64,000 nucleotides of DNA from an uncultured bacterium. GTDB taxonomy: Bacteria; Bacillota_I; Bacilli_A; RF39; UBA660. Below the pieces are notes generated by a model. The model was given only the letters and a program-made list of their open reading frames with translations, was not told the origin of the DNA and searched no databases. Below, one piece after another: positions 79-17,245 of this stretch. The stretch's first letter is position 1, and each line of letters begins with the position of its first letter. The translations under genes and the position numbers were made by a program. The stretch is taken from the NCBI GenBank assembly GCA_949292245.1, contig CASEYV010000002.1:16150-80149 (forward strand), read 5' to 3'.

Positions 79-108
79 TCAATAAAAAAACACATTTTTT
101 AAACGGAA

Positions 109-559
109 TTTACTATAATTCTTTATAAATAAAATCAAAATTTTCACAAAAATTTACTATAACTCTTTATAAATAAAACTCCTATATAACACCGTTATAA
201 ACTACAATTCTTTATAAATAAAAATATATTTTTTAAACGATATATGTTACAATTCTTTATAAATAAAATTTTCATATAACACCGTTATAAACTATAACTC
301 TTTATAAATAAAACTCCTATATAACACCGTTATAAACTACAATTCTTTATAAATAAAAATTAAAATTTCCACAAAAAATTACTATAACTCTTTATAAATA
401 AAACTATATAAAAACGGTGTTCTAAAAAAAAATTTTCAACAAAAAATTACTATAACTCTTTATAAATAAAAATTTATTTTTTTTTAAAATTTACTACAAT
501 TCTTTATAAATAAAATATTATTTTTAAACGGTGTATATTACAACTCTTTATAAATAAAA
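109..559 (+). repeat. Array of 10 copies of (T)TACTAYAAYTCTTTATAAATAAAA, period about 44-46 bp (iteron/terminal-repeat-like)
   Basis: Copies near 109, 153, 201, 247, 291, 336, 379, 447, 491, 538; spacers ~20 nt, AT-rich and partly repeated. Confidence 0.9.
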
Positions 560-560
560 T

Positions 561-1748
561 TCAAAAATCAAACATATCCAAGAAACTATGCCCATCATCT
601 ACCTTAACCTCACAACCCTTCACATCATTCTCATACACTCCACCCAGGAACTCCCTATTAATATTATCTATTTCAAAATCAAACAACGGCACAGAATCAC
701 ACCTAATCTCCCCATCTAACCCACAATAACGGCAAACAATATCTCTAATAGCCTCGAACGGACTTTCATCAAAAACCCACTCTTCCCAACAACGACAAAC
801 TTCCCCAACAACACCCCAAACGAACTCATCAAACACACAACCCTCATTCTTATCAAACCCCCCCCTAACTTCACACCCATTAACCAAATACTCACCACCC
901 TCACCAACACCAAAAACTCCATAACCAAAACTCTCCAACACCCCAACCTCCCCCCTAAACTTCCCAACCTTCAACTTCTTATGACACAAGAACCTCACAT
1001 ACTTATCAAAAAAACTACAAAACACACTAACCAAAAACCCACTCCCAAACTTCCCAGCCACCTTCCTAACCCACGCCCTATCAACCCACCCCACCTCTCC
1101 AACAAACTCAACACTCCCATCACTCCCAATCCTAACACCACTCCCATCACCACTCCAACCCCCTTCTCCAACTCTCCCAACAACTCTCCTCACAACACCC
1201 TCATCAACCCCATACTCCTCCAAATCCCCCATCTTGATAAATTTCCTCTCCCCATCAACCCCAATCAACCTAACAAACCCCTCACCAACCCAATCAACCT
1301 CCCAAATACCACCAAACCCACCACACACAACCTCAAACAACTCAAAATCTCTTCCCAAATACTCATCAACCCTAACACCCACCTCACCAGTCCACTCCCC
1401 ACCAAACTTAACCCATTCACTACTCAACCCACCAATCCTCTCCCAAACCCACCTCAGCACAACCAACCCCCACCTATCAACCAACAACCTCAAAACCTTA
1501 CTCCTAACACCACCCATCTCAACAACCCCAACATCCCTCCTATCAACCAACTCACCAAAATCTTCACACCAAACTTCCTCACCCAGCTCACCCCAAAACC
1601 CATCATCACAATGCACAAACCACTCCTCCCCATCAATTTTAACCCCACCAAAAAACTTCTTACGACTAAAAACAACCCTAACTTCCCCCAACTTCTCCAA
1701 AACCAACACCCAATACCCCCTGTAAAACTGTCCTGCTCTAAAAATCAT
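561..1748 (-). CDS. Hypothetical protein, extremely G/V/W/E-rich due to strand skew
   Basis: 395 open codons; GAGGT RBS upstream of ATG on the minus strand. Confidence 0.7.
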   Translation of the reverse strand: MIFRAGQFYRGYWVLVLEKLGEVRVVFSRKKFFGGVKIDGEEWFVHCDDGFWGELGEEVWCEDFGELVDRRDVGVVEMGGVRSKVLRLLVDRWGLVVLRWVWERIGGLSSEWVKFGGEWTGEVGVRVDEYLGRDFELFEVVCGGFGGIWEVDWVGEGFVRLIGVDGERKFIKMGDLEEYGVDEGVVRRVVGRVGEGGWSGDGSGVRIGSDGSVEFVGEVGWVDRAWVRKVAGKFGSGFLVSVFCSFFDKYVRFLCHKKLKVGKFRGEVGVLESFGYGVFGVGEGGEYLVNGCEVRGGFDKNEGCVFDEFVWGVVGEVCRCWEEWVFDESPFEAIRDIVCRYCGLDGEIRCDSVPLFDFEIDNINREFLGGVYENDVKGCEVKVDDGHSFLDMFDF

Positions 1749-2056
1749 TTCAATACCTCACTAAAAAATCGATATGCAAATCATTACATACCGTAACATT
1801 TTCAACGTCCATTTTCCATATATCCTATTTACTTCCATCTCTATTTAAACGGTATACCAACAAAAAACTTATAAAAACCTATAACAAAAAAAACACAAAT
1901 AAAACGATATACAACAAAAAAACCCAAAAACCACCACCCCCATATATATCCCTAAACACATTTTCCTATTTTTTTATCTCACACACACAAAACGACGTAC
2001 AAAACAAACTTATATATATTCTACTAAACAAATACATCAACTAGGAGTGATAAAAA

Positions 2057-2407
2057 ATGTTAAAAGTATTCATAGCACAACCATTAAAAACAAGCCCACA
2101 AACCCAATCAAACCTAGAAACCCACCTAAAACCACTAGTAGACACCTACCTAAAAAATCAGCCATACACCTTCATCTCACCAGACCCAACAGATGCAATA
2201 TACAAACTACCAATAGACATCTTAGCAGACTACATATACTACATATCACAATCAAACTTAGTAATCTTCCCACTAAACTGGGAAGAATCCAAAGACACCA
2301 TGACCCAAAACATCATATGCAACCTATACAAAGTACCAAACGTAACCGAAGAGGCACTAACCATATCAAACATACTAAATAAAAACGATGTACCAAACCT
2401 AAAATAA
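2057..2407 (+). CDS. Degenerate DUF4406 / nucleoside 2-deoxyribosyltransferase-fold protein
   Basis: KVFIAQP start and SNLVIFPLNWEESK match the family pattern; GGAG RBS. Confidence 0.5.
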   Translation: MLKVFIAQPLKTSPQTQSNLETHLKPLVDTYLKNQPYTFISPDPTDAIYKLPIDILADYIYYISQSNLVIFPLNWEESKDTMTQNIICNLYKVPNVTEEALTISNILNKNDVPNLK

Positions 2408-2500
2408 CCCACCAACCAAAAACCTTATATACCATGAGCCACATATTAACCATTACAAATCAATGTGTGTCTACCAAGAACACATTAAAGGAGGATAATT

Positions 2501-2899
2501 ATGGTAAATATTAGCAAATTTTTTGACTCACACATCATAAACCTAAAAAAAGATAAATTTTGGGGATATGAAGAAAAAGATGACAGCGTCTTAGTAACAT
2601 TCTTCACCAAAAACCACGAACCTATAGACCTACATTTCAGCAAAGATGAATTCCAAAAACTCAAAACATCCATGAGAATAAAAGAACTAAAAGACATGCA
2701 AGAAAGTGGAACCATACCACAAAAAATAAACTACGAAATACTTAACGACGTAATCCTACTAAAACTAGGCAGCAACAACTTTATGGTTCCATTCGACGCA
2801 CTACTAAACCTAATCAAAGACCTACACTCCAAAGGAGAACTAAACATATCAGCACAAATAACAAACGAAGGAACATCAATCAATTTCAATAAAAAATAA
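2501..2899 (+). CDS. Hypothetical protein
   Basis: GGAGG RBS; TATA-like CTTATATA at about 2424-2431. Confidence 0.8.
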   Translation: MVNISKFFDSHIINLKKDKFWGYEEKDDSVLVTFFTKNHEPIDLHFSKDEFQKLKTSMRIKELKDMQESGTIPQKINYEILNDVILLKLGSNNFMVPFDALLNLIKDLHSKGELNISAQITNEGTSINFNKK

Positions 2900-4068
2900 A
2901 ACGATATATGGAGAAAAAAGTATGATAAGAGTATTTGAAGCGTTTGCGGGTTATGGTAGTCAAAGAATGGCATTGCGTAACATCGGAATTGAATTTGAGG
3001 TAGTTGGTATCTCAGAGATAGAGGGCGATGTTATTCAATCATATGCTGCGATTCATAGTGATTTTTTGGAAAAAAGGGAACATATTGATAGCTATGTGCC
3101 TGAAGACAAAGAAGAAATGATTTCTTATTTGGAAGAAATTAATGTTCCATTAGATTACAAAACTTTTGAAAACAAGGCTAAAAAGCTTAGACTGCCAAAA
3201 TTAAAAGATATGTACTTAGCAAACAAACTGATTAACAATTATGGAGATATACAAAGAATAAATCCTACAACTTTACCTGATTTTGATTTGTTCACATACT
3301 CATTCCCTTGTCAGGATATATCTGTAGCGGGATATCAGTGCGGATTAAATGAGGATTCTGGAACCAGGTCATCATTACTGTGGGAATGCTGTAAGATTAT
3401 TGAAACTAAAAGACCCAAATATCTGATGATGGAAAACGTTAAAAATCTTGTTGGGAAAAATCATAAAGATAATTTTTTGAAATTTTTAGATTATCTTGAA
3501 AGTTTAGGTTATAAAAACAGCTGGGCTGTTTTAAATGCCAGGGATTATGGTGTTCCTCAAAATAGGGAACGAGTTTTCTGTATCAGCGAGCTTGAAAGCA
3601 AAAGAGATTTTGTTTTTCCAGAACCGACAGAATTGAAATTCAAACTTGATGATATTCTTGAGAAAGATGTCGATGAAAGATATTATCTGAACAATGGTCA
3701 AGTTATGGATAAACCTATTAAGCAGGAGTATAGCTATTGTTTGGACTCCAATTACTGGAAAGGCACCACACTTCAAAGTTTTTTAAAAAAGCATAGAAGA
3801 CAGCTTGTAACTGACAGGGTCAATGAATCTGGGCAATATGTACCAAGAAGGCTTACTCCAAAAGAAACATGGAGGCTGATGGGTGTTAATGATGAAGATA
3901 TTGAAAAAGCAAGCCAGTTGGTAAGCAACACAAGTCTTTATAAACAATCTGGAAACAGTATTGTTGTTCCAGTTCTTGAAGCTATATTCAAACAATGGTT
4001 TATTGAGATGCATTATATGATGAATCTATAGATATTTTAAATGCTATTAAAAAATAAAACGATATATG
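2890..4068 (+). repeat. Perfect 21-bp direct repeat TAAAAAATAAAACGATATATG (2890-2910 and 4048-4068) flanking the first C5 methyltransferase
   Basis: Direct comparison of both copies. Confidence 0.9.
2922..4031 (+). CDS. dcm: DNA (cytosine-5) methyltransferase, orphan
   Basis: Motifs FAGYG, FPCQ, MENV, PQNRER, QSGNS. Confidence 0.95.
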   Translation: MIRVFEAFAGYGSQRMALRNIGIEFEVVGISEIEGDVIQSYAAIHSDFLEKREHIDSYVPEDKEEMISYLEEINVPLDYKTFENKAKKLRLPKLKDMYLANKLINNYGDIQRINPTTLPDFDLFTYSFPCQDISVAGYQCGLNEDSGTRSSLLWECCKIIETKRPKYLMMENVKNLVGKNHKDNFLKFLDYLESLGYKNSWAVLNARDYGVPQNRERVFCISELESKRDFVFPEPTELKFKLDDILEKDVDERYYLNNGQVMDKPIKQEYSYCLDSNYWKGTTLQSFLKKHRRQLVTDRVNESGQYVPRRLTPKETWRLMGVNDEDIEKASQLVSNTSLYKQSGNSIVVPVLEAIFKQWFIEMHYMMNL

Positions 4069-4083
4069 AAAAAAAGTGATACC

Positions 4084-4395
4084 ATGACTAACCTAACTCA
4101 ACTAATACTAATATTCGAGGAAAAGTACGATGCAGAATGGACCGACAACATACAATACAGCTACTCACACGAATCATCAGAAATAGACTTCATCATACCC
4201 ATAGAATCAATACCAAACCTACTAACAGACATCAGCAAAATCAAAACCACATCAATGTTCGAAATAAATAAAACAATAATAAAATGCATATACGAAGAAG
4301 AGGAATACTATATATCAATAGACATAAGTACAATAAAAAAACTCTTAAACGATATACAAAAACAAACCTTTATATGTGGAGGAAAAAATGACTAA
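4084..4395 (+). CDS. Hypothetical protein
   Basis: ORF in array; start after AGTGA RBS-like site. Confidence 0.7.
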   Translation: MTNLTQLILIFEEKYDAEWTDNIQYSYSHESSEIDFIIPIESIPNLLTDISKIKTTSMFEINKTIIKCIYEEEEYYISIDISTIKKLLNDIQKQTFICGGKND

Positions 4396-4564
4396 AACAA
4401 ACACCAACCACTTTTGGATTTACGAAAGAATAAAAGAAATAGATGAAGAAATAGCTCAAAAGAGGAAAGAAAAAGCATTCCTAGAATCTCTATTACAAAA
4501 AGATTCTCCATGCATATTCAAATCAAAAACTTCAGATACATTATTTTTTAACAAAAACTATTAA
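4388..4564 (+). CDS. Small hypothetical protein
   Basis: GGAGG RBS; overlaps upstream stop. Confidence 0.65.
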   Translation: MTKTNTNHFWIYERIKEIDEEIAQKRKEKAFLESLLQKDSPCIFKSKTSDTLFFNKNY

Positions 4565-4592
4565 ACGATATATAAGAAAGGAGAATAATAGA

Positions 4593-4907
4593 ATGGAAAA
4601 ATTAAACAATAAAAACGGACCACTTCAAGTCCGTAAAATAGTATTAACAGGAAAATACTTTCCTATGGATAAATCAGACTCCAAAGAATATATCTATATA
4701 TCCATAGATTCAAGCCAATCTTTAACAAAAGTGTTATCAAATAAATTAGAAGAAACATGGCAAGAATTAGGTGTAAACAAAAACCCAAAAGAAATTATAG
4801 AATCAGATGAGTTTATAAAAAAATTAGAAGAAAACAATATTTATTATATGGACAGCAAATATATGGATTTCCAAAAATTATATATATTTGCCTTATATAA
4901 AAAATAA
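4593..4907 (+). CDS. Hypothetical protein, paralog domain A
   Basis: YIYIS...EETWQELG...FIKKLEENNIYY matches the C-terminus of 4928..5443. Confidence 0.75.
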   Translation: MEKLNNKNGPLQVRKIVLTGKYFPMDKSDSKEYIYISIDSSQSLTKVLSNKLEETWQELGVNKNPKEIIESDEFIKKLEENNIYYMDSKYMDFQKLYIFALYKK

Positions 4908-4927
4908 ACGATATATGGAGAAAAAAA

Positions 4928-5443
4928 ATGGAAAAAATAGAAGAAAAAATAAATCAAAGTACAAAAATTTTAAACGATATTCATGGACAAATTCACACAT
5001 CACTACAAGATATATACAGAGAATTCCATACTTATAGCCCAAAAGGTTTAGATAAAGAAATATCTCGTATAAATGAATTAACAAAAGCATTAAAAGAAGA
5101 AGAATCTAACTTAAGAGAATTAGAAAAGAAAAACAAACAAATTCAAGCCTACACCATAACACTTGACTACGGAGGAGTCAATATGGCAAGTCCAAGCACA
5201 TTTATAGACTACCTTTACATATCAACCAATTCAGACCAAGACCTAGAAGAAGTATTATTTGAAGAAATAGAAGAAGTATGGAAGGAATTAGGCGAAGACA
5301 ACTCTATAACAACAGTTCTTCAATCATGTAACTTCATACAAAAATTAGAAGACAAAAATATTTACTATATAAACGATGAATACATAAACCTCAAAAAAAA
5401 GGGCATATACGGCAACATCACCTACAAAAATTATAAAAATTAA
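4928..5443 (+). CDS. Coiled-coil plus domain A protein
   Basis: Junction motif and GGAG RBS; paralogy with 4593. Confidence 0.75.
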   Translation: MEKIEEKINQSTKILNDIHGQIHTSLQDIYREFHTYSPKGLDKEISRINELTKALKEEESNLRELEKKNKQIQAYTITLDYGGVNMASPSTFIDYLYISTNSDQDLEEVLFEEIEEVWKELGEDNSITTVLQSCNFIQKLEDKNIYYINDEYINLKKKGIYGNITYKNYKN

Positions 5444-5465
5444 ACGATATACAGGAGCAAAAAAA

Positions 5466-6014
5466 ATGAACAGATTAATAATAAAACACCTACTCAATTC
5501 AATTTTAAAAGACAAACTAAACCAACCTACCAACGGACCAACTCCACAAACTAGAATAATTGATGATAAATATGTATTTATAGAAACAAAACAACCACTA
5601 ACAACGGAAGCAATATCCTGTATCCAAAAAGGCTTACTTCACTCACAATTTGTCGCATCAAATACAGACAACACCGTTGCAGTCTTCAAACTAACCGAAC
5701 CAGAATATTATGTGATACAACACATAAAACTAACAATAGACCTAATACAAAAAGAAACCAACACCCTAAACCCAGAACTCCCAAGAGTAGCTGGATACCT
5801 TCAAAACATTGGGTTCAAACTCAAATACTACTACAAAGGCGAGGAATACGAACCAACCATAGAAGTTTTAATACCCAAAGACACTCCAACAGAAGAAAAA
5901 AACTCAATGCACGAAACTCTCTTTAAAACAGTAGATGAATTCGCATCAAGATACAACATAAGCGAAGAATTTCTACAAAATCTACATATATTTTTAACAA
6001 GAGAAAAACAATAA
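5466..6014 (+). CDS. Hypothetical protein, domains B+C
   Basis: N half similar to 13104; C half similar to the 9402 C-terminus. Confidence 0.75.
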   Translation: MNRLIIKHLLNSILKDKLNQPTNGPTPQTRIIDDKYVFIETKQPLTTEAISCIQKGLLHSQFVASNTDNTVAVFKLTEPEYYVIQHIKLTIDLIQKETNTLNPELPRVAGYLQNIGFKLKYYYKGEEYEPTIEVLIPKDTPTEEKNSMHETLFKTVDEFASRYNISEEFLQNLHIFLTREKQ

Positions 6015-6035
6015 AACGATATATGGAGCCATAAA

Positions 6036-6332
6036 ATGATATATTCAATTAAATATACAAGAGGAATCGATGATTATTATCTTTATTTTTACCATCCATC
6101 TAACAATCACGAAGACTGTAAAAAAGCACTCAAAGATGTATGCCATCATATATGTGAAACCCAACAAATAAACAAAGAAACTCAAAACCCATACACATTC
6201 ATATCTGACAACACCAAACTTATAAAAAACGAAATGGCAAAAAGAGGATTCGAACCATTATCCGTAACAGAGATAGCCGAGTTCTCCGATGAGGACCCAC
6301 TATCCGAATCCTTCCAATACAATAATATATAA
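6036..6332 (+). CDS. Hypothetical protein, divergent domain A
   Basis: Junction motif and GGAG RBS. Confidence 0.7.
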   Translation: MIYSIKYTRGIDDYYLYFYHPSNNHEDCKKALKDVCHHICETQQINKETQNPYTFISDNTKLIKNEMAKRGFEPLSVTEIAEFSDEDPLSESFQYNNI

Positions 6333-8198
6333 AAACGATATATAGGTGAAAAATATGTCAAACTCATTAATAGAAGAATTGCCTAAAATTATAAGAAAAG
6401 GCAGGAAAGAAGCAAATAAAATATTAGAAGGTTTATCCGAAGATAGCAGATTAACTTTACAGACAAATGAACTAGTTTTGCCATCTAAAGATGAGGCAGG
6501 ATATTTTGTAAATTCAAATGAAAAAGTATTAGATAGTCAAAAAGCTAATAAATTGATTTATGGTGATAATTTATTTATTATGCAAACTTTATTAACAGGT
6601 GATGAAACAACTCCATCCATGAAAGGAAAAATTGATTTAATATATATTGACCCACCTTTTGATTCTAAAACAGATTATAAAATCAAAACTAAATTAAAAG
6701 ACACTACTATAGAACAATTTGCATATTCTGATACTTGGAAAAAAGGGACTATAAGCTATTTGGAAATGATGGTTCCACGTTTAATTTTAATGAAGGAATT
6801 GCTATCTGAAAATGGAACTATTTATGTTCATATTGATTGGCATGTAGGACACTATGTAAAAATTATGATGGATGAAATCTTTGGAAGAGATAACCTTATG
6901 AATGAAATTGTTTGGTGCTATAAATCAGGTGGAGCTTCTACAGCTAAAGGATTTGCAAAGAAGCATGATGTTATTTATGCATATAATAAGTCAAATAATT
7001 TTATTTTCAACAATATTAAAGAAAAATCTTATATGGGTATAGGATATACTACTGGAAACAAAAATGTTACATTATATGATGATAATGACGGCAAAGGCCC
7101 ATATACATTAGTGAATGTTAAAGATTGGTGGACAGATATTGGAATGATTGCAACATCTAAGGGAAGGCTTTATGCTACTCAAAAACCAAAAGAGCTTCTA
7201 GAAAGAATTATCTCAGTTTCATCAAATGAAAATTCAATAGTTGCAGACTTTTTCTGTGGTTCAGGTACAACTGGTGCTGTTGCTGAAAAATTAGGCAGAA
7301 GATGGATAATGTCTGATTTAGGAAAACCTGCCTGTATGGTTACTAAAAAAAGATTAATAGACCAAAAATCCATTCCTTTTCTATATCAATCAATTAGAAA
7401 TTATCAAAAGGAACAATTCAAACAATCAGAATTTAAAACCATCAGCGACTTATCTCATGCTGTTATGAATTTATATGGAGCCACACCATTTAATGATAAT
7501 GATAACTTAGGTTACATAAAAGATTCAAAAACTTTAGTTTATGTTGATTTTCTTTCTAAATTAACTAGTCATAATACATTAATTAAAGCACAAAAATTAA
7601 GAAATACATATAAAGGGGGGTGGAATAAAGTAGTTATATTGGGGTGGAATTTCGTTCAGGATATTAGTCAAATTATTATTGATTTAAATGATTCTAATCT
7701 TGAAGTTTTAGCTATACCACATAATTTATTAGAACAACTTAAAATAAAATCTAAAACTAATAAATTAATAAAATCTGGCAATTTAAGACTTTCATCTCTA
7801 CAACATCTAACTGTTAAAAAACCGACAATCGAAAATTATAATGAAGAATTAGAAACTTTAACAGTTGAATTAGATAATTATGTTTTATTATCTCCTGAAG
7901 CTTTACCATTAAATAAAAAAAATAAAGAGAAAATATCCGAAATAATAGATAACGACCCATTATCTTTAATTGAATATTGGAGTATTGACCCAGATTATGA
8001 TGGAAAAATATTCCGTAGCAGATGGCAAAATTATCGTGGAAACATTGCAAATGATAATCCTTATAAAGTTACTAAATATGTAAAAATTAATGTTCCTAAA
8101 CTCAATAGAAATAGAGTAATCTGTGTAAAAACAGTTGATATATTTGGGTTTGAAAATACTATTACAATAAAAATAAAATAAAAACGATATATAGGTGA
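6329..8198 (+). repeat. Perfect 21-bp direct repeat ATAAAAACGATATATAGGTGA (6329-6349 and 8178-8198) flanking the Mod-like methyltransferase
   Basis: Direct comparison of both copies. Confidence 0.9.
6355..8181 (+). CDS. mod: Type III Mod-like beta-class N6-adenine (or N4-cytosine) DNA methyltransferase; no Res partner seen
   Basis: LIYGDN, YIDPPF, TQKP, DFFCGSGTT; long C-terminal extension. Confidence 0.9.
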   Translation: MSNSLIEELPKIIRKGRKEANKILEGLSEDSRLTLQTNELVLPSKDEAGYFVNSNEKVLDSQKANKLIYGDNLFIMQTLLTGDETTPSMKGKIDLIYIDPPFDSKTDYKIKTKLKDTTIEQFAYSDTWKKGTISYLEMMVPRLILMKELLSENGTIYVHIDWHVGHYVKIMMDEIFGRDNLMNEIVWCYKSGGASTAKGFAKKHDVIYAYNKSNNFIFNNIKEKSYMGIGYTTGNKNVTLYDDNDGKGPYTLVNVKDWWTDIGMIATSKGRLYATQKPKELLERIISVSSNENSIVADFFCGSGTTGAVAEKLGRRWIMSDLGKPACMVTKKRLIDQKSIPFLYQSIRNYQKEQFKQSEFKTISDLSHAVMNLYGATPFNDNDNLGYIKDSKTLVYVDFLSKLTSHNTLIKAQKLRNTYKGGWNKVVILGWNFVQDISQIIIDLNDSNLEVLAIPHNLLEQLKIKSKTNKLIKSGNLRLSSLQHLTVKKPTIENYNEELETLTVELDNYVLLSPEALPLNKKNKEKISEIIDNDPLSLIEYWSIDPDYDGKIFRSRWQNYRGNIANDNPYKVTKYVKINVPKLNRNRVICVKTVDIFGFENTITIKIK

Positions 8199-8199
8199 T

Positions 8200-8970
8200 T
8201 TGATGATTAAAATGAACAACCATGAAGTTATCAACAGATTCAGGAAAGCAACAGAAAGAGAAATAGAAGCATTAGAAGAAGATTACCAAAACACAGAAGA
8301 CATAACAGAAAAAGAAAACCTTGCAAAGAATATTGCAAACTGTTATGCAAAACTACAACAATACAACGGAGTAGAGAAAAAAATTGGAGATGATTTCAGC
8401 TTAATTCCTGAAATACCTGAAGAAGTAATTGCAAGTATGGATAGAATTCAAAGTATGATTGACTATGCACTATTTATGTGTGAAAAATATAAAGATTCAG
8501 ACTGTAAACTTGACATAAGAGAATTTGATAAGAACTTATGCAAAATCTACAATAGCATAACATTACCTTATCATTTCGAATACAAAGCAATGATTCATTT
8601 ATTAAGTGAAGAAATGGGTCATTCAATATTCAATGACAAATATGCAGATTTAATGCATCAACCTGAATACCTTTTAACCTATGCATACTTAATAGATAAT
8701 GAATTATTTGATATTTCCTATGAGAGTATTGAAAATGAATTAGATAAGATTATTTATGTTCCTGATATGATATGCTTTATTACATATACATCACAATACA
8801 TCGGCACAGAATATGAAAATATATTTTGGAATAAGAAATTCGATGACCTATCAGATGAACAATGGATTGAACAGTTAATTAAGCAAGGAATTGTGTGGAC
8901 AAACGATGAAAATCTTGGTTATATTATTAACCAAGACTTTTTAGATTTGGAGGATGAAGATGATGTTTAA
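8200..8970 (+). CDS. Hypothetical acidic protein
   Basis: 256-aa ORF after junction motif with GGTGA RBS. Confidence 0.8.
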   Translation: MMIKMNNHEVINRFRKATEREIEALEEDYQNTEDITEKENLAKNIANCYAKLQQYNGVEKKIGDDFSLIPEIPEEVIASMDRIQSMIDYALFMCEKYKDSDCKLDIREFDKNLCKIYNSITLPYHFEYKAMIHLLSEEMGHSIFNDKYADLMHQPEYLLTYAYLIDNELFDISYESIENELDKIIYVPDMICFITYTSQYIGTEYENIFWNKKFDDLSDEQWIEQLIKQGIVWTNDENLGYIINQDFLDLEDEDDV

Positions 8971-9118
8971 AATTGAAGAAACTTTTAATGGATATGCGAT
9001 TATGTACGATGATGAAATAGTATTCAAACTTGAAGGAGTAATGAATACTAAGGCTACTGCCGATAGGATTGTGAAGAAACTTAATGAGGCGATTAAAGAT
9101 GATGAAGAAGTTTATTAA
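8963..9118 (+). CDS. Small hypothetical protein (51 aa)
   Basis: GGAGG RBS; MFKIEETFNGY...; overlaps upstream stop. Confidence 0.55.
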   Translation: MFKIEETFNGYAIMYDDEIVFKLEGVMNTKATADRIVKKLNEAIKDDEEVY

Positions 9119-9173
9119 ATTAATAATTTATAACTAATACCTCAATTACTTATTCACATAAACGATATATTAG

Positions 9174-9389
9174 GTGATAATTATGAACAAACATCAAGAA
9201 AAATTAGAAAATGCAAAAAAAGAAATAATAGATATGCTTAAAGATATTATAGAAAATCATTCAAGTTATAGTCATATAGCTATGCTGTCAAAATTAAATA
9301 CTCTAAATGAATACATAGATAAGCATTATAAAGAAACATATATTGACTATTTAATAGTTGAATCTCTTAATAAAGATTTAAATAAATAA
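9174..9389 (+). CDS. Hypothetical protein
   Basis: Junction motif plus GGTGA RBS. Confidence 0.7.
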   Translation: MIIMNKHQEKLENAKKEIIDMLKDIIENHSSYSHIAMLSKLNTLNEYIDKHYKETYIDYLIVESLNKDLNK

Positions 9390-9401
9390 GGAGCTATTAA
9401 T

Positions 9402-9947
9402 ATGTTTATATTGGAATTTTACGACTGGGATTTCATGTATAACTACTACATAGAATCAGAGAAACCTATAACAAAAATTGAATTTAAAGAAAAACTTCTA
9501 AAAGTATTCGAAGATATGACAGAAAATGATTCTGATGAAATATGGGAAGCTTTACCAGCTTATTTTCATTCTTCAGAAGAATGCAGTAAATTTAAAAAAG
9601 CCTTAAAAAAACAAGGACTATACCTATTAGATGATATAATAAAAGCAAGCATCCACGAATATACAACATTATCATCCTATAAAACAAAACTTAAAAACGA
9701 TATTATATTAGAAAAAATAACCAACGAACTTTCCAAACATGGCTATAACTCATCTTACAACTACAATAATTGTGATGAAATTAACTATCAAGAACCACAC
9801 CTATACATTTCAGTAGAAACCATAACAGACAAAAACCATTACAACGAAATAACAAACAAAGTAACAGACACCGTTTATAATTTTTGTCAAAAAGAAAATA
9901 TCATAGACTTTTTCGGCACATTAGAAATACACATAACCTTAAATTAA
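9402..9947 (+). CDS. Hypothetical protein, domains A+C
   Basis: Paralogy with the 12212 N-terminus and the 5466 C-terminus. Confidence 0.75.
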   Translation: MFILEFYDWDFMYNYYIESEKPITKIEFKEKLLKVFEDMTENDSDEIWEALPAYFHSSEECSKFKKALKKQGLYLLDDIIKASIHEYTTLSSYKTKLKNDIILEKITNELSKHGYNSSYNYNNCDEINYQEPHLYISVETITDKNHYNEITNKVTDTVYNFCQKENIIDFFGTLEIHITLN

Positions 9948-9970
9948 ACGATATATAGGAGGCATACAAT

Positions 9971-10363
9971 ATGATATTTAAATTTAGTATCTGTGATTAC
10001 GAAGGAAGCGACAATTTGTACTTCGACGTAGATAACAACCTAACAAGAGAAGAAATAATTGAAAAAATTCATGAAGCATTGAGAAATCATGTCAAAAACG
10101 AATTAGATGAGGATAGCAAAAGACCTATAGGAAAAAAAATTTATTGTACAGAAACAAAAGGTATTGAATCCTTTGGTGGTTCTAAAAAATTAAATAAAGA
10201 ATTTGAGAAAGTAGGATTAAAAAAAATTAAAATACCTACCTATAACATATGGTACGATGAAGATGCCTACACTCTCTTAGGAATAGATACAAAATGTAGA
10301 GGACCTGAAAACTGTCAAAAAGTATGGTGTGATAAGGTACACGAATGGAAAAAAAATAAATAA
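9971..10363 (+). CDS. Hypothetical protein, domain A with Cys-rich tail
   Basis: Junction motif plus GGAGG RBS. Confidence 0.75.
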   Translation: MIFKFSICDYEGSDNLYFDVDNNLTREEIIEKIHEALRNHVKNELDEDSKRPIGKKIYCTETKGIESFGGSKKLNKEFEKVGLKKIKIPTYNIWYDEDAYTLLGIDTKCRGPENCQKVWCDKVHEWKKNK

Positions 10364-10374
10364 GAGGTATAAAA

Positions 10375-10584
10375 ATGAAAATAGATGAAAAAGTATTAGA
10401 TGTAATTGCTATAGATATAAACCAAAGATACGAAGAAAACGAAACAAATCCCCCAGATAATATAAATGAGTATATCAATATAACAACTCGCCTTGAAGGA
10501 AGATTAGATATTATAGATTTTCTAAAAGGCATATTAAAAGATGATAAAGATATAATAAAATATTTAAATTCTATAATGGAATAG
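10375..10584 (+). CDS. Hypothetical protein
   Basis: GAGGT RBS. Confidence 0.7.
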   Translation: MKIDEKVLDVIAIDINQRYEENETNPPDNINEYINITTRLEGRLDIIDFLKGILKDDKDIIKYLNSIME

Positions 10585-10589
10585 ATATT

Positions 10590-10754
10590 ATGACAAAAGA
10601 TATTAAAATATTAGAGGACCATATTTACACACTTTTAACGGAATTATATAAAAATTTCTATAAAATGGAAACAGATGAAGCACACTATCTAATGAAAACA
10701 ATCGAATACCAAATGGATATACTCGAAAAAATAAAATATGGAGAATCAATATAA
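10590..10754 (+). CDS. Small hypothetical protein
   Basis: 54-codon ORF filling the gap in the operon. Confidence 0.5.
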   Translation: MTKDIKILEDHIYTLLTELYKNFYKMETDEAHYLMKTIEYQMDILEKIKYGESI

Positions 10755-10782
10755 TATTAAACGGTATATAGGAGATTCAAAA

Positions 10783-11223
10783 ATGAAAATAACAGGCGAA
10801 ATACTACAGAAAATAGAAAATAAGCTATGGGAGAAATTGAAAAATTTAAATAAAAATGAAAAACAATTAATAGAAGATAGAAGTATATCATATTTCAGTA
10901 TGAGTGAATTTGCTGATGCTTATGGATGTATCTACTGTATAAATTACTTACAAGAATTAAAGGAAATAATTAATGATAATGAAGGTTATATCAGACACTA
11001 TGGCTTAGAAGAGTTCAAAACAAAAAACAAAGCAGAAGTATACGGAACAAAAGAAGCAATAAAAACTCTTAAAGCTGAATATCAAAACAAATTAAATGAA
11101 TTACTCGCAGAATCTATACCTAACAACGGAGGATTATATGCAATAGAGTTATTCTCAACTGCACACTATCTTGAATCAGGAATAGACACTCTAAATGCCT
11201 TAGAAGAAAGATTAGAAGATTAA
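10783..11223 (+). CDS. Hypothetical protein
   Basis: Start after junction motif TAAACGGTATATAGGAG. Confidence 0.75.
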   Translation: MKITGEILQKIENKLWEKLKNLNKNEKQLIEDRSISYFSMSEFADAYGCIYCINYLQELKEIINDNEGYIRHYGLEEFKTKNKAEVYGTKEAIKTLKAEYQNKLNELLAESIPNNGGLYAIELFSTAHYLESGIDTLNALEERLED

Positions 11224-11252
11224 TAAAATAAAACGGTGTATAGGTAAAAATT

Positions 11253-12194
11253 ATGAATAATTCTTTAAAAAAACCTAAACTTAAATTAATGCCAGTTGGA
11301 GAAGTTAAATATAAACAAAAAGACTTTTTGAAATGTCCTTTTAATTATATTGGTGGAAAACATAAAATACTCCCCCAATTATTTACTGCATTTCCAGAAA
11401 ACAATGATATTTTCCTAGACATGTTTGGTGGAGGATTCAATGTTGGAATTAACAGCAATGCTTCTAAAATCATCTATAATGACCAATTAACTCCTTTAGT
11501 TGAATTATTTAAATATCTTCAAGACAATTCATGCGAGGATATTATAAATTATATTGAAACCACAATTAAAGATAACAATATTAGAAAAGATGAAAAAGAA
11601 GGGTTTCTTCAATTTAGGAATCAATACAATCAATCTGAAGAAAAATTCCCTTTAGATTTATACGTATTAGTTTCATTCTCATTTAATTATCAATTCAGAT
11701 TCAATAATAGTGGTGAATACAATAGTTCACATGGAACTAACCGTAGTTCTTTTACAAAGAACATGAAAGAACGATTAATACAATATATCAATATTATTCA
11801 TGAAAAAGATATAATATTTTTAAATAAAGATTTTACACAGTTAGATTATTCTATTTTAACTGAAGATAGCTTTGTTTATTGCGACCCTCCTTATTTGATA
11901 ACTACAGGTTCATATAATGATGGTAATAGAGGTTTCAAAAACTGGACCATAAAAGAAGAAAAAAATTTATTGAAATTATTATCAAAACTTGATAAAAAAG
12001 GAATTGATTTTGCATTATCTAATGTAACTATTCATGATGGAAAACAAAATGATTTATTACTTGATTGGATTGAAGCAAATGAATTTACTGCATTAGATAT
12101 TAATTCAGATTATAGCAACTCTAATTATCATAAAAAAAATAAAGATAAAGAAAAAAATACAGAAGTATTAGTAATTAATTATTCTTTTAAATGA
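11253..12194 (+). CDS. Dam/D12-class N6-adenine DNA methyltransferase, orphan
   Basis: PFNYIGGK, DMFGGG, YCDPPY, ALSN, EVLVINY. Confidence 0.92.
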   Translation: MNNSLKKPKLKLMPVGEVKYKQKDFLKCPFNYIGGKHKILPQLFTAFPENNDIFLDMFGGGFNVGINSNASKIIYNDQLTPLVELFKYLQDNSCEDIINYIETTIKDNNIRKDEKEGFLQFRNQYNQSEEKFPLDLYVLVSFSFNYQFRFNNSGEYNSSHGTNRSSFTKNMKERLIQYINIIHEKDIIFLNKDFTQLDYSILTEDSFVYCDPPYLITTGSYNDGNRGFKNWTIKEEKNLLKLLSKLDKKGIDFALSNVTIHDGKQNDLLLDWIEANEFTALDINSDYSNSNYHKKNKDKEKNTEVLVINYSFK

Positions 12195-12211
12195 TTTATT
12201 AAGGTGATTAA

Positions 12212-12787
12212 ATGATGTACGAATTAATACTTAAAGACTATAATGAATATGATGAGGAATCCTTTTTTTATGAGTCAGAGATAGAATATAATTCAGAAGA
12301 GTTTTTTAATATAATTTTAGAAGCAATTCATACTGTATCCGAAATAATGGAATCAAATAGTAAATCAATAACAGGTAAACCATATAACATATACAACATC
12401 GTTGTAAGTAAAGAATTCTCTGAAGAATTAAAAAAATACGATATACATATCATAAATTTTCAAACTCACGAATTAAACAATTCATTTGATTCAGTAGAAA
12501 AGGTTTTAAAAAAATACAAATATGTTAATAAAAAAGAAATCATTAAAACAATCACTAATTTATTTAAAAAAACAAAAAATGAACCACATATGGGCGGAAA
12601 ACTTATATCATCTAAAATCTTCGGCAACTACATTCTAATAGAAGCCGAAAAAACAATGGATACAAATATGATTAATACAATAAAAGAAACTTTAAATAAT
12701 ATAAACGATATAAATAAAGTTCACTTAACAGGTTCAAATAAAAATATGAGTTTGTTAATATACGAAATGGAATTTTATTATGAATAA
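12212..12787 (+). CDS. Hypothetical protein, domains A+B
   Basis: GGTGA RBS; paralogy with 9402 and 13104. Confidence 0.75.
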   Translation: MMYELILKDYNEYDEESFFYESEIEYNSEEFFNIILEAIHTVSEIMESNSKSITGKPYNIYNIVVSKEFSEELKKYDIHIINFQTHELNNSFDSVEKVLKKYKYVNKKEIIKTITNLFKKTKNEPHMGGKLISSKIFGNYILIEAEKTMDTNMINTIKETLNNINDINKVHLTGSNKNMSLLIYEMEFYYE

Positions 12788-13134
12788 AAATGAAATAGAA
12801 TTAAAAATTAATTGAATAAGTAGATGAATGAGGATTGATAAAATGGAAAAAGAAAATATACCATACATTATAGCAATATTTATTGTTATATTATTAGTTA
12901 TAATTATAGAATATTATTTATATTTATTTATATCACAGATGACTATTATTAACGATGCAACAGATTTTTATTTTGCCATGCAAAATTATGGTTTATTGTT
13001 ATTCCCAATGTTTATAGGGGCTGGGGTAATATGTTTTATTAGAAGGCTTATAGAAGAATAAGGTGAAATATGAACCTGTTAATATACAAAATGGAATTTT
13101 ATTATGAATAAAAATGGAATAGAATTTAAAATTA
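12742..13134 (+). repeat. 69-bp direct repeat (12742-12810 and 13066-13134; 6 mismatches) flanking a small membrane gene
   Basis: Direct alignment. Confidence 0.9.
12828..13061 (+). CDS. Small two-TM membrane protein
   Basis: Two hydrophobic stretches. Confidence 0.7.
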   Translation: MRIDKMEKENIPYIIAIFIVILLVIIIEYYLYLFISQMTIINDATDFYFAMQNYGLLLFPMFIGAGVICFIRRLIEE

Positions 13135-13355
13135 GAACGATATTTGAATTAGCAAATGGACAAGTAGGAATGGGCCAAGGACTCAAAGACATAAAATTCA
13201 TCAACAACGACTACATCTTAATAGAGTCAAATCATCCAATGAATGCAAGAATGATAACCCTCTTAATGAAAAACCTACACGAATCCATTAACGCAGATAT
13301 AATAACTAGCTTTCGAAAAAACACCGTTTTAATATTAAAATTAAACGATATATGA
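13104..13355 (+). CDS. Hypothetical protein, stand-alone domain B
   Basis: YILIES/YILIEA/YVFIET pattern shared with 12212 and 5466. Confidence 0.7.
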   Translation: MNKNGIEFKIRTIFELANGQVGMGQGLKDIKFINNDYILIESNHPMNARMITLLMKNLHESINADIITSFRKNTVLILKLNDI

Positions 13356-13363
13356 GGAAAAAA

Positions 13364-13972
13364 ATGACTGTAATATTAGCATCTAAAGATTTATCAAACG
13401 ATAGTATATATATAGGTTCAGACCTACTTAGCAGTACCGAATACAACGTCTACAAAAAAACTAAAATCATCAAAAAAGAAGATAAAGATGGAAACCTTAT
13501 AGTTTTTGCTGTAGCTGGATACACATGGCTAGTTGACTACATTAAAAATTATGACCTAAAAATAATAAACGATGTATCCCATTCCCCATACAACTATATC
13601 AAAAAAGTATTATTTTGTATGTACGATGATTTATTAGAAAATGCACTAATCCCAATCTATGATGAGGAAAAAGACACTTGCTCCAATATAATCATAATAT
13701 ATAAAAACAACATCTACAGTATACAAAGCAACTTTGCCATATTAGAAGAAGACAACTATGAAGTCATCGGAAGTGGATACCCAACAGCTACTGGAGCATT
13801 TTTAGCATCAAAAATGGCAGGGCTCTCCATCAAAAAATCAATAGAGTCAGCACTTAAAATAACCATAGACAACAACAAAAGCTGTGGATTAGGATACGAA
13901 ATCTACAAAATAAAAAATAACGAAATAAAACTAATAAAATCAAAAGAACAATACATGGGGGTAATAAATTGA
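13364..13972 (+). CDS. Ntn-hydrolase, HslV / proteasome beta-subunit-like peptidase
   Basis: N-terminal M-T-V, IGSD, AVAG and IGSG motifs. Confidence 0.75.
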   Translation: MTVILASKDLSNDSIYIGSDLLSSTEYNVYKKTKIIKKEDKDGNLIVFAVAGYTWLVDYIKNYDLKIINDVSHSPYNYIKKVLFCMYDDLLENALIPIYDEEKDTCSNIIIIYKNNIYSIQSNFAILEEDNYEVIGSGYPTATGAFLASKMAGLSIKKSIESALKITIDNNKSCGLGYEIYKIKNNEIKLIKSKEQYMGVIN

Positions 13973-14248
13973 ACGATATAAATAAAATTAAATAATAAGC
14001 TTCTTTTTTTTATCTTATACTAATTTTTTTTATTTTTATACTATACTTTTATATACTATAAATTATCAACATAATTATAGGTGATATTATTTTAATCAAG
14101 GAATATCGTTATAAAGGGACAGATGGAATTCTTTTAATTGATGAAGACATTACAACAGATGTTTTTCTATCATTAGAAGAAATTGATAAGATAGTAGATT
14201 TTTATTATGATATGAAAGCTAAAGAATTAAATAACAAAATAAACGATA

Positions 14249-14812
14249 TTGGGGAATGAAATGAGTTGGATTCAAGAGTCAAGAATAGTAAAACTTAAAA
14301 AAGATAAACCACTTAAAGATGGTAATGTATCATGTTATATTACTGCATCTACTCAATTATATGGTATAACCAAAGCATTTGCTGTAAATAAAAATAACGA
14401 AGTAATTTCTTTTAATGATAAAGTGTATTACGGAAGGCCTGAAGATATTCTAAAGACTTATACATTTAAAGAGCTTGGAGTAACAGAAAATTATTTCAAT
14501 AAACACTATATGGATAAAAAATTTTTATTTGTAATACCGTTTAATACTTATATTGAACCATATAAATTAGAGAAAAAAGTAAGGGGTACAAGAAAAATTG
14601 AAAAAGATGAACTACCTATATTAAAATTTTTGATAGTTGAAAATTATTGTCATGGGGAAAAAATTAATCCATTTGACATTCCTAATCATCTACATGAATT
14701 TTGTATGGAGTTAGATATTATTGATGCATTAACTTGGTATCAATCCCACAACAAAAGGGAAGGACTTTTAGATTATATTAATTATTTTGAAGACTTACGT
14801 AACAAAAGGTGA
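14249..14812 (+). CDS. Hypothetical protein
   Basis: 187-aa ORF. Confidence 0.75.
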   Translation: MGNEMSWIQESRIVKLKKDKPLKDGNVSCYITASTQLYGITKAFAVNKNNEVISFNDKVYYGRPEDILKTYTFKELGVTENYFNKHYMDKKFLFVIPFNTYIEPYKLEKKVRGTRKIEKDELPILKFLIVENYCHGEKINPFDIPNHLHEFCMELDIIDALTWYQSHNKREGLLDYINYFEDLRNKR

Positions 14813-15347
14813 TTATTTGTCAGATGTTGTAATATCATATAGCGATATGGCGGATTTTATTATGAAATGTGCTGATGAATTTACTGAATATTGTGATGAA
14901 AATAATATAGACACAATGGATTTTTATGGTAGTTTTGATAGATTATATGATAGGGCAGGAATGGTATCAGAATTAAGGGAATATGAAGATACACCGTTGT
15001 TTAATTATGTAGCAGTTGAAAATTTACATAATGCTATAGATAGATTAAGGTCTGCTATGAAAGGCTATGAATCTGAATTACCTGATTCTGAATGGGGTAA
15101 TAAAATCAGAGAATTAAATAGGATTAATCATAAATTGTCTAATAAATATAATGAATATAGACAACTTAGAATGGATTCTGAAGATTTTTATAGGGTATAC
15201 GGTTTCTATAGAGAGCTTGAAATCTTGTCAAAAGAATTAGATTATGCTCAATCATATATAAAAAGTACAAACTCTGCTCTAAAATTATTATTAAAACGAA
15301 GTATACCAGAATTAATTAAAATAAGTGCTAAATATAGTGATTTATAA
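14787..15347 (+). CDS. Hypothetical helical protein
   Basis: 186-aa ORF; likely TTG start after GGTGA. Confidence 0.75.
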   Translation: MKTYVTKGDYLSDVVISYSDMADFIMKCADEFTEYCDENNIDTMDFYGSFDRLYDRAGMVSELREYEDTPLFNYVAVENLHNAIDRLRSAMKGYESELPDSEWGNKIRELNRINHKLSNKYNEYRQLRMDSEDFYRVYGFYRELEILSKELDYAQSYIKSTNSALKLLLKRSIPELIKISAKYSDL

Positions 15348-15430
15348 TGAATATCATAGGATATATTGGTGGATTATATATTTTTTTAATTATTATTATA
15401 TTTTTCATCTACATAATAAGGAGGTATTAA

Positions 15431-15700
15431 ATGGATAATGAAATGAACATACATGATTACAAAGACATAATCAATAATAATTACGGTATACAGCTTGAAA
15501 TATTATTAGATAAGATAGATGACAACTTATTTTATGTTAAAAAAGAAATTGCTGTACATAAGATGAAAAAAGAGGAATTATCTCCTACATTAATTGAAGA
15601 GTTATATAACACTTTAAACGAAATAAAAGATGACTTAATAATTTATAGACAAACACTTCAGGACCATCATAATTTTCATGAAAACATTAAGGAGATTTAA
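15431..15700 (+). CDS. Hypothetical protein
   Basis: GGAGG RBS. Confidence 0.7.
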   Translation: MDNEMNIHDYKDIINNNYGIQLEILLDKIDDNLFYVKKEIAVHKMKKEELSPTLIEELYNTLNEIKDDLIIYRQTLQDHHNFHENIKEI

Positions 15701-15887
15701 TACTATGACTTTTAAAGATGATAGAAAGACAGCTCCTTTAAATATCAAGTTATATAATGATGAGAAAAAAGTTTACATACCATATTTAATATGGAATATG
15801 TTCGAAAAAACATGTTGGGATTGTGTTCCAGCACGTTTATCTGATAATTATTATTGGAATGCTCATAGGAGTTGGTTAATTGCTTGA
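15678..15887 (+). CDS. Hypothetical protein
   Basis: Overlapping operon ORF. Confidence 0.6.
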   Translation: MKTLRRFNTMTFKDDRKTAPLNIKLYNDEKKVYIPYLIWNMFEKTCWDCVPARLSDNYYWNAHRSWLIA

Positions 15888-16191
15888 AAGAGATATACAA
15901 ATGATAGCACAACATTTAACGATGTTAAATATAATGTATACTGATGAAGAAATAGCATATTTAAGAAAATTAAAAGAAGTATTACCACTATCAATATACG
16001 AAATAGTTGATACTATAGATTTACAGAACGATGGTTTTTTTGATGATATTACAGTAGTAATACAAATTCCATATCACTATGGAGAATATGCAAAAGCAAT
16101 ACTAAAAGATTACAACCCTATTATAAATTATGAAGATTATGGTATAGAATTTCATATTCCAATAATGAATATTAAAGGTGATACAGAGTGA
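15880..16191 (+). CDS. Hypothetical protein
   Basis: Overlapping operon ORF. Confidence 0.65.
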   Translation: MLERDIQMIAQHLTMLNIMYTDEEIAYLRKLKEVLPLSIYEIVDTIDLQNDGFFDDITVVIQIPYHYGEYAKAILKDYNPIINYEDYGIEFHIPIMNIKGDTE

Positions 16192-17234: not shown

Positions 17235-17245
17235 GTCGTGATAGA

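Follow-up and report, generated by a model that had tools for sequence, protein, structure and literature searches.

Integron arrays are built on attI and attC sites and on the integrase IntI, carry promoterless open reading frames (ORFs) behind one promoter, and possess an attC site that folds as an imperfect inverted repeat. Orphan DNA methyltransferases, in turn, are the usual counter-defence of phages. The locus described here is located in a 64-kb stretch of DNA (hereafter the window; G000:C2:16150-80149), which belongs to the 107,674-bp contig C2 of a 1.69-Mb assembly, and is a long array of genes whose junctions are marked by the 11-nt word AAACGRTRTAT. The PeSL cassettes of T4-like phages, as outlined in the parts of the reports by Arbiol et al. 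2010 (PMC2839356) and Comeau et al. 2014 (PMC4122927) considered here, are intergenic and stretch from the upstream stop codon, lying in an A/T-rich stretch, to the next ribosome-binding site and start codon; they cluster where small accessory genes lie, recombination from one cassette to another brings about insertions, deletions and replacements, and exchange between neighbours yields mini-circles. In the part of the former report that concerns their build, a PeSL combines a sigma-70 promoter with a stem-loop terminator (PMC2839356). For methanogens, mRNA processing sites clustering just upstream of ribosome-binding sites, both in 5′ leaders and in intergenic regions, and raising stability and translation are described in the available part of Qi et al. 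2017 (PMC5499594).

We consider the word, with a probability of about one in two, to be a virus-specific cis-acting expression signal of a single accessory operon, the repeats of which double as recombination seams. The window contains 24 copies of AAACGRTRTAT, 21 of them on the plus strand, against a mean of 0.18 copies and a maximum of 2 in 100 dinucleotide-preserving shuffles, and 31 of the 40 matches in the whole assembly are located on contig C2. All 14 copies listed in the initial annotation between 2890 and 14254 are present, as is the variant at 13970, and 12 of the 14 are exact, with the copy at 5441 ending in C and the one at 14240 deviating in the last two letters. The word was described there as standing between most genes, which holds for 13 of the 22 operon junctions, the rest being without it: eight word-less junctions join genes that overlap or are tightly coupled, and the first one carries a variant followed by a 93-nt spacer. 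It was also said usually to begin at the upstream stop codon; the stop codon of an upstream ORF of at least 71 codons lies in or at the word in nine of the 14 copies. Nor is it confined to the array, as it was also found at 235, 526, 1848, 1903 and, in a looser form, at 1990, with 16 more copies elsewhere on the contig. The operon and its signals, the junction words being assigned by word match, are the following.

2010-2018, plus strand: TATA-like box, the putative operon promoter, 24 nt before the first ribosome-binding site
2057-13972, plus strand: accessory operon of 23 ORFs, in which 13 of 22 internal junctions have the word immediately 5′ of the ribosome-binding site
2899-2909, plus strand: junction word before the C5-cytosine methyltransferase gene (Dcm)
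4057-4067, plus strand: junction word
4563-4573, plus strand: junction word
4906-4916, plus strand: junction word between two paralogous ORFs
5442-5452, plus strand: junction word, last letter C
6014-6024, plus strand: junction word
6333-6343, plus strand: junction word before the N6/N4 methylase gene
8182-8192, plus strand: junction word
9160-9170, plus strand: junction word
9946-9956, plus strand: junction word
10759-10769, plus strand: junction word
11231-11241, plus strand: junction word before the adenine methyltransferase gene (Dam)
13343-13353, plus strand: junction word, through which the upstream ORF reads
13364-13972, plus strand: HslV-family peptidase-like gene, the last of the operon
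14004-14031, plus strand: two T8 runs (at 14004 and 14024), the putative archaeal terminator, directly after the last gene
14241-14250, plus strand: variant word of the next transcription unit (TATA-like box at 14047)

In the logo of the 14 copies, the letters AAA-C-G-x-T-x-T are invariant (14/14), and two positions alternate between A and G. The word is preceded by an A/T flank, with A or T at 133 of the 140 letters of positions −13 to −4 against a background A+T content of 0.72, and upstream of this flank nothing is conserved among the 14 copies. In most copies the ribosome-binding site begins 0-2 nt past the word; it reads GGAG, AGGTGA, AGGAGG or GAGG, all of which are registers of the anti-Shine-Dalgarno complement, and an ATG is found 10-14 nt past the word at 11 of the 13 operon junctions. 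All 13 junction copies of the operon point in the direction of the genes. The word itself is no palindrome, the folded junctions showed neither an inverted repeat nor a hairpin, and the junction RNA is unstructured, as all ten folded junctions gave values from 0 to −5 kcal/mol with no common stem. Known RNA families were rejected, the only match of an Rfam search being below threshold, and so was an extended pairing with the 3′ end of the 16S rRNA of the host genus, which has the usual anti-Shine-Dalgarno sequence with the next letters unpaired and whose best internal match (11/12 with wobble) is at chance level. A literature search for a 10-mer of the word gave nothing but primers in the listed 10 of 23 papers.

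The window is, judging by its gene content, a piece of a tailed virus of Methanobrevibacter of approximately 120 kb, binned by mistake with a bacterium; this assignment is based on the lysin, on the archaeal PCNA, Mre11 and Hef, and on the bin being otherwise bacterial. Over its last 267 residues, the lysin shares 58-60% identity with pseudomurein endoisopeptidases from Methanobrevibacter smithii tailed virus 1 and from a human-gut virus of Methanobacteriales, and all eight phage records matched by the lysin are viruses of Methanobacteriales. Models of the archaeal-type PCNA, Mre11 and Hef/XPF nuclease match C2 proteins, so that the contig possesses both a pseudomurein endoisopeptidase lysin and archaeal replication and repair genes, as expected of a Methanobacteriales virus. 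It also codes for tail and baseplate proteins, a tape-measure protein, NrdD and NrdG, and HNH and GIY-YIG endonucleases, and its recombination genes include those for Mre11, an ERCC4/Hef nuclease and a DinG/Rad3-type helicase. According to the assembly search, the rest of the bin contains a ribosomal protein L20 of bacterial type, archaeal S8e and methyl-coenzyme M reductase were not found in the assembly, and C2 has only housekeeping-type homologues in common with the rest of the bin, at 24-38% identity. Near-identical proteins (85-100%) are encoded on contigs from public assemblies that reach 119-128 kb, and a 142-kb contig carries one member of the NrdD cluster; as the contigs of these relatives are bigger, about 12-20 kb of the viral genome would be missing from C2.

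No DNA of relatives was found in IMG/VR (three proteins, one alignment), in the Joint Genome Institute metagenomes or among the GTDB species genomes, and a BLASTN search of the phage collection and a search of 60 genomes around the bacterial bin matched pieces of methylase genes only. Scanning IMG/VR for the 14-nt word gave single chance matches, with no other locus examined having more than two copies. Among the 20 sequencing runs listed, three include half or more of the sampled words and carry only the label ‘metagenome’, and runs labelled as bird or chicken gut contain small shares; no habitat is claimed. Three large ORFs have no match at E ≤ 0.1 among solved structures, the single match listed having an E-value of 0.84.

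The word is virus-specific and is not present above chance in host genomes. It occurs 0-14 times per strand in 314 Methanobacteriaceae genomes, dispersed and at the level of a reversed control, on account of which a host-wide signal was rejected; the richest of these genomes has 24 copies dispersed over 2.9 Mb, and three other Methanobrevibacter viruses (143 kb) have none. On C2, outside the control region described below and the operon, there are 16 copies in 93.3 kb against 0.3 (at most 3) in 200 shuffles, an approximately 50-fold enrichment, and 13 of these are intragenic (11 sense and two antisense), with nine in frame and reading Asn-Asp-Ile. The 31 copies of the contig lie on the minus strand at 0-12 kb, on the plus strand at 16-70 kb and on the minus strand again at 71-107 kb, with two exceptions (29/31). 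Since the word is invariant among unrelated neighbours, is kept whether translated or not, and is absent from hosts and other viruses, it is evidently under selection for itself.

The ORFs of the array had been annotated as promoterless, which agrees with our observations, as the genes that follow the word appear to lack canonical promoters of their own and nothing is conserved at positions −24 to −16 of the word junctions in the 14-copy logo. The region 2057-13972 is apparently one transcription unit with a single promoter and a single terminator, because two canonical promoters can be made out here, with TATA-like boxes at 2010 and 14047, each 24 nt 5′ of a ribosome-binding site, T8 runs are found only after 13972, and the junctions have no box at the corresponding distance. 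Start codons are fixed by motif I in Dcm and, in the HslV-like protein, by the N-terminal Met-Thr, which is kept in 31 of 32 relatives. There is only one paralogous pair in the array, namely the ORFs 4593-4907 and 4928-5443, 36% identical over 101 residues and separated by a junction word, so tandem gene duplication was rejected as the source of the repeats; the arrangement of these two neighbours is one that unequal exchange between words would yield.

Relatives were compared through their proteins (85-99% identical), the read-through ends of which report the junction DNA. The word is intact in all relatives that have lost the upstream stop codon, being read as Asn-Asp-Ile or Thr-Ile-Tyr (P0001, P0034, P0036, P0064, P0073, P0083, P0120-P0123, P0258, P0311 and others). 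In relatives, the N6/N4 methylase (86% identical) runs into the word and then into tails other than that of the window; the tail of the P0123 methylase is also present in four further relatives, where it comes after the homologues of ORF 13104-13355, no tail behind these homologues matches the start of the next gene of the window, the HslV-like one, and the ORF preceding the N6/N4 methylase in the window has a different continuation in P0083. Units thus evidently occupy different junctions in different lineages, with the word at the seam each time. The sizes of the 90%-identity clusters along the array are 49, 4, 28, 7, 5, 7, 4, 9, 31, 4, 2, 3, 26, 11, 13, 12, 33, (Dam, in a mixed cluster), 5, 2, 25 and 48, with 47 for the helicase, 57 for Mre11, 24 for NrdD and 66 for the dCTP-deaminase-like protein among the core genes, which means that common and rare genes alternate at the scale of single units. 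By these comparisons, the array can be described as a hyperplastic region whose gene units are bounded by the word. In most relatives, ORF 6036-6332 ends by reading the word (…Tyr-Asn-Asp-Ile-stop), unlike in the window, where 13 extra letters at 6320-6343 resembling a decayed word give a separate stop.

Three genes of the operon code for methyltransferases, two of which (Dcm and the N6/N4 gene) had been annotated as inserted.

2922-4031, plus strand: C5-cytosine methyltransferase (Dcm), by protein family match and host DNA homology
4010-4047, plus strand: non-host stretch of 38 nt between the end of the Dcm homology and the right-hand 21-bp repeat
6355-8181, plus strand: N6/N4 (Mod-type) DNA methyltransferase, by protein family match and host DNA homology
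11253-12194, plus strand: D12-class adenine methyltransferase (Dam), with host homology from codon 2 to 6-9 nt past the stop codon and no word 3′ of it

When positions 1-18000 of the window were searched against 103 Methanobrevibacter genomes, 12 of them had a match, and all matches were methylase genes except for one A/T-rich match of 60 nt at 20-79. At the DNA level, Dcm is 87-90% identical to genes of two genomes (window 2909-4009), Dam 86-88% to genes of three (11255-12200), the N6/N4 gene 72-78% to genes of three (6345-8175), and a second Dcm, located at 16189-17221, 72-73% to genes of two. One host chromosome has a gene for a ResIII protein behind the N6/N4 homologue, the two making up a type III system, and in it the Dam homologue follows a second D12 methylase. 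The N6/N4 protein has a 79% identical relative on a 1.38-Mb contig, the named Methanobrevibacter relatives being at 60-61%, and relatives of the Dam protein at 97% are found on contigs of up to 319 kb. With close homologues in host restriction-modification systems and no partner nuclease in the virus, the three methylases are evidently orphan copies of host restriction-modification methylases, which bears out their foreign origin. From context and composition, we infer that the transfer proceeded from host to virus, where the methylases presumably protect the viral DNA. Dcm and the N6/N4 gene had been reported to have a codon usage unlike that of their neighbours; a deviating composition is true of Dcm, with a G content of 0.21 versus 0.12, but the second methylase differs from its upstream neighbours only. 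A Methanobrevibacter chromosome (L237, G071:C1:1788000-1807900) carries homologues of two of the viral methylases 6 kb apart; the neighbourhood also includes a phage capsid-like gene and a lysin with 39% identity to that of the virus, and this locus is apparently a defence island beside a provirus.

The ends of the host homology could be placed in four cases, and only one of them, the left end of Dcm, abuts the word, the three others lying inside genes or just past a stop codon with no word. At the left end of Dcm, host and virus agree up to a stretch of 11 nt that directly follows the word and covers the ribosome-binding site (2909-2919); it recurs at the native viral junction 4905, so the crossover lies somewhere within this microhomology. 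At the right end, host and virus part at 4009/4010, 12 codons short of the host stop codon, and the following 38 non-host nt, read out of frame, give the viral Dcm its own 7-residue tail. This stretch has 16 open codons in frame ending at the TAA of the word, which is not significant alone, and is possibly the 3′ stump of a displaced viral gene. The homology of Dam starts from codon 2, directly after the viral ATG, host genes and some viral relatives having 11 extra N-terminal codons, so the viral gene appears to have been fused to a resident viral start codon with the loss of 11 host codons; its right end reaches 6-9 nt past the stop codon with no word after it. Such a pattern of breakpoints makes the capture resemble illegitimate recombination at the level of microhomology.

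Dcm and the N6/N4 gene are each flanked by an exact 21-bp duplication, just as the initial annotation stated, but such duplications are not peculiar to the methylases. Among the 171 junction pairs, the two flanking pairs share the top rank (21 nt) with the non-bracketing pair 2897/4905, and the fourth pair reaches 19 nt. The odds of both named pairs being in the top three are about 2 in 10,000, for pairs chosen after the fact. The 21 bp extend differently around the core, by 12+9 nt in one case and 7+14 nt in the other, and part of the identity is due to the A/T constraint, with three junctions ending in Lys-Lys-stop. The identities fit recent junction-to-junction events better than a fixed crossover site.

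The region upstream of the operon also contains copies of the word.

100-560, no strand assigned: control region of ten tandem units of 44-45 bp (one of 68)
561-1748, minus strand: conserved 395-aa gene divergent from the operon, with 28 C in its 1188 coding nt
1848-2001, plus strand: three copies of the word, at 1848, at 1903 and, in looser form, at 1990, within the stretch upstream of both divergent promoters (1750-2056)

Each tandem unit consists of a fixed 24-nt part with a palindromic TATA-like box and about 20 variable nt. The core of the word, AACGRTRT, is present in six of the ten spacers of the tandem array, three in each orientation, and at 235, 526, 1848 and 1990 the word stands 9-11 nt before a TATA-like box. 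The array might represent an origin with iterons, a series of small promoters or a collection of decoy sites. The 395-aa protein has Cys pairs and belongs to a 44-member cluster; the Atlas search gave no usable match for it, and its AlphaFold model, with a mean predicted local distance difference test (pLDDT) score of 32.5, was not used.

The composition of this protein is unusual, Ala, Pro, Thr, His and Gln together making up 11 of its 395 residues versus 114 of 635 in the helicase. The plus strand of the window is nearly devoid of G up to position 2000 (1-5% per 400 nt) and, to a lesser degree, up to about 6300, and both this bias and the odd composition of the 395-aa protein are kept in relatives at 86-91% identity. 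A strand free of G permits no palindromic site containing G:C, and its RNA has no G-C pairs; the G-poor stretch may be a restriction-proof or a structure-free leading region. Just left of the window, at L010 13900-14900 of C2, there is a stretch of about 1 kb with a nearly C-free plus strand, G/T-rich short repeats and no long ORF, and the switch in composition adjoins the tandem array at 100-560.

In the explanation that we favour, the region 2057-13972 would be a long ‘early-type’ accessory operon of small, mostly unknown genes and three host-copied methylases, and the word with its 13-nt A/T flank would be a cis-acting expression signal 5′ of the ribosome-binding site of each unit. Its reader would most likely be a virus-encoded protein acting on the polycistronic RNA in the direction of transcription, and the word would be either a processing site freeing each ribosome-binding site or a translational-control operator. 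Reading at the level of the transcript is suggested by the placement of the word, by its sense orientation at 13 of 13 junctions and in 11 of 13 intragenic copies, and by its unstructured A/U-rich setting. A virus-encoded RNA polymerase as the reader was rejected, the DxDGD motif being present in no ORF of at least 40 aa. The approximately 20-25 nt formed by the word and the ribosome-binding site, recurring 13 times in the same orientation, would act as passive seams where short-homology recombination between co-infecting relatives swaps, duplicates and moves units, and the primary capture of host genes would be illegitimate or at the microhomology level, followed by selection for a working junction. 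Several points weigh against this explanation. Copies of the word in apparently untranscribed DNA (three before divergent promoters, about 10 nt from TATA-like boxes, and six in spacers, in both orientations) favour a DNA-binding reader, and the orientation of 29 of the 31 copies fits a replication-type polarity as well as transcription. The adjacency to ribosome-binding sites is partly forced, the intergenic space being only about 25 nt, and the word does not fit the processing motif given for methanogens in the available part of PMC5499594. That there is one promoter and one terminator, and that reading takes place on RNA, we infer from the layout of the region. As for the seams, the content of relatives varies unit by unit with the word kept, as the initial annotation anticipated, but the cluster sizes, which serve as a proxy for presence or absence, jump at the word-less junctions 9389/9402 and 12194/12212 as well. 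The evidence for exchange at the word consists of the protein ends of relatives, and since the word is present at most junctions anyway, its placement at a seam is no proof of exchange within it.

Ranked second, and to our mind possible rather than probable, is a double-strand DNA operator to which a viral regulator or an origin-binding protein would bind at the control region and at the junctions, acting, for example, by roadblock or silencing, with the seams as a by-product. The copies 9-11 nt before the four TATA-like boxes, the two orientations in the tandem array, the enrichment of the contig outside the operon (16 versus 0.3, intragenic copies included) and the conserved gene with Cys pairs adjoining the array speak for it; yet a symmetric reader of duplex DNA needs neither the intragenic excess of sense over antisense copies (11 versus 2) nor the co-orientation of all gene-adjacent ones, a site before each cistron would have no obvious function, and the model of the 395-aa neighbour is useless at its mean pLDDT. 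A polar DNA word for replication, recombination or packaging, similar to Chi or KOPS, with the density in the operon being secondary, seems the least probable of all: 29 of the 31 copies do follow a three-block polarity switching near the tandem array (at about 13-16 kb of the contig) and at about 70 kb, and the virus has Mre11 and other recombination genes, but this polarity is inseparable from gene orientation, and the placement between stop codon and ribosome-binding site at 13 junctions, where the density is 8-fold higher, would be left unexplained. Dispersed, co-oriented words before genes are typical of viral promoters, and the word, in which an alternating TA string comes after a run of purines and which has an A/T tract upstream, looks like a B recognition element and a TATA box, so it might be a promoter or part of one, used by the host polymerase or a virus-modified one, each unit having its own transcript. 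PeSLs contain promoters, too, according to the relevant part of PMC2839356. This role fails because of geometry, and we regard it as improbable: the canonical TATA box lies 24 nt from the ribosome-binding site here, whereas the word touches it, so that transcription would start about 23 nt on, i.e. 10-14 nt inside the ORF, and the start codons are fixed by the N-termini of Dcm and the HslV-like protein. Moreover, no two-barrel polymerase motif was found in ORFs of at least 40 aa, and there was no match to a T7-type polymerase.

The initial annotation favoured an integron-like system of dedicated gene capture. In such a system, a site-specific recombinase, coming from the host or from the ~12-20 kb that are not assembled, would insert and excise cassettes of promoterless ORFs at the word. 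Its observation was sound, and the word indeed brackets units, the 21-bp flanks of two methylases are in the top three of the 171 pairs, a related N6/N4 methylase is found at a different junction in relatives, content is variable unit by unit, and part of the genome is unseen, given the relatives’ contigs of 119-128 kb. The mechanism is mostly unsupported. No integrase had been seen in the window, and none was found on the rest of the contig either, nor was any recombinase family matched on its 107 kb (Pfam, ORFs of at least 80-90 aa); a search for one in the rest of the assembly is moot because this is a bacterium and not the host. The junctions have neither an inverted repeat nor a hairpin, three of the four placeable homology ends are outside the word, Dam has no word 3′ of it, and 38 nt of non-host filler precede the right-hand repeat of Dcm. 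The two 21-bp identities differ in extent around the core and are equalled in length by a non-bracketing pair, and the word is also intragenic and present in the promoter region. We therefore hold such a system to be quite unlikely. Somewhat less doubtful, but still doubtful, is that the word is the crossover point of a gene-shuffling device, with units being excised, moved and exchanged between co-infecting genomes at a high rate by viral recombination proteins or an unseen recombinase, each landing with its expression signal.

Several other features of C2 were observed. The contig pairs a bacterial-type DnaE polymerase having a PHP subunit with an archaeal sliding clamp. A tRNA-Thr(UGU) gene is located on the minus strand at L010 12526-12599 and adjoins a gene for a helix-turn-helix protein of the Cro/C1 type. 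There are three free-standing endonuclease genes, two of the HNH type (36% identical to each other) and one of the GIY-YIG type, at 46937-47449 and 58325-59137 of the window and at L012 480-1118, one of them directly after the nrdD/nrdG pair; these are probably homing endonucleases. A second intergenic cassette with at least six copies, consisting of a stop codon, a 10-12-bp stem-loop, an A/T box and a ribosome-binding site, was found at L010 3800-8200 of C2 between small plus-strand ORFs, some of which are paralogous (a 47% and a 39% pair), and its build is closer to that of a PeSL than the build of the word is.

Very little is known of the viruses of gut methanogens; this one is large, and its signals differ from those of the three Methanobrevibacter viruses with which it was compared. 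An exact 11-nt word that is enriched about 50-100-fold and retained at gene seams provides a handle on the control of a long accessory operon by an archaeal virus, as well as on the uptake and reshuffling of host methylases against restriction. Should it prove a recombination seam, the modular shuffling by regulatory cassettes would reach beyond T4-like phages into Archaea. As an RNA signal, it would give studies of mRNA processing or translational control in methanogens a defined site to work on. A shuffling device of which it formed part would be, for Archaea, the first described cassette system comparable to PeSLs or integrons, and would serve to keep pace with host restriction.

Like integrons, the locus is a one-directional array of ORFs behind one putative promoter, with a repeated site bounding the units and content that is variable in relatives. 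Unlike them, it has no IntI-type tyrosine recombinase on the 107-kb contig within the scope of the Pfam search, its site is an 11-nt, non-palindromic and unstructured word and not an attC hairpin, only one of the four homology ends abuts this site, and the word stands 5′ of genes at the ribosome-binding site and also inside genes. The three viral methylases, with no partner nuclease and 72-90% DNA identity to host genes, resemble the orphan methylases of phages but sit in a word-bounded array. The likeness to the processing sites of methanogens, as described in the available part of PMC5499594, lies in the A/U-rich single-stranded setting just 5′ of the ribosome-binding site on a polycistronic mRNA; the motif given there is loose (a uridine ruler) and host-wide, whereas the word is an exact 11-mer with an invariant CG, and cleavage here is hypothetical. 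With the PeSL cassettes, as far as the relevant parts of PMC2839356 and PMC4122927 go, the locus shares short conserved cassettes in a hyperplastic region of small, non-essential, mostly unknown genes, the layout from stop codon to ribosome-binding site and start (here at 13 of 22 junctions), and a virus with recombination genes of its own. Insertions, deletions or replacements between close relatives may end at the word junctions as well, to judge by the protein ends of relatives, which show the word kept and different genes behind it. The locus differs from the PeSL cassettes in the archaeal host and in the word junctions having neither a stem-loop nor promoter geometry. The word junctions may thus best be read as an archaeal analogue of the PeSL cassettes.

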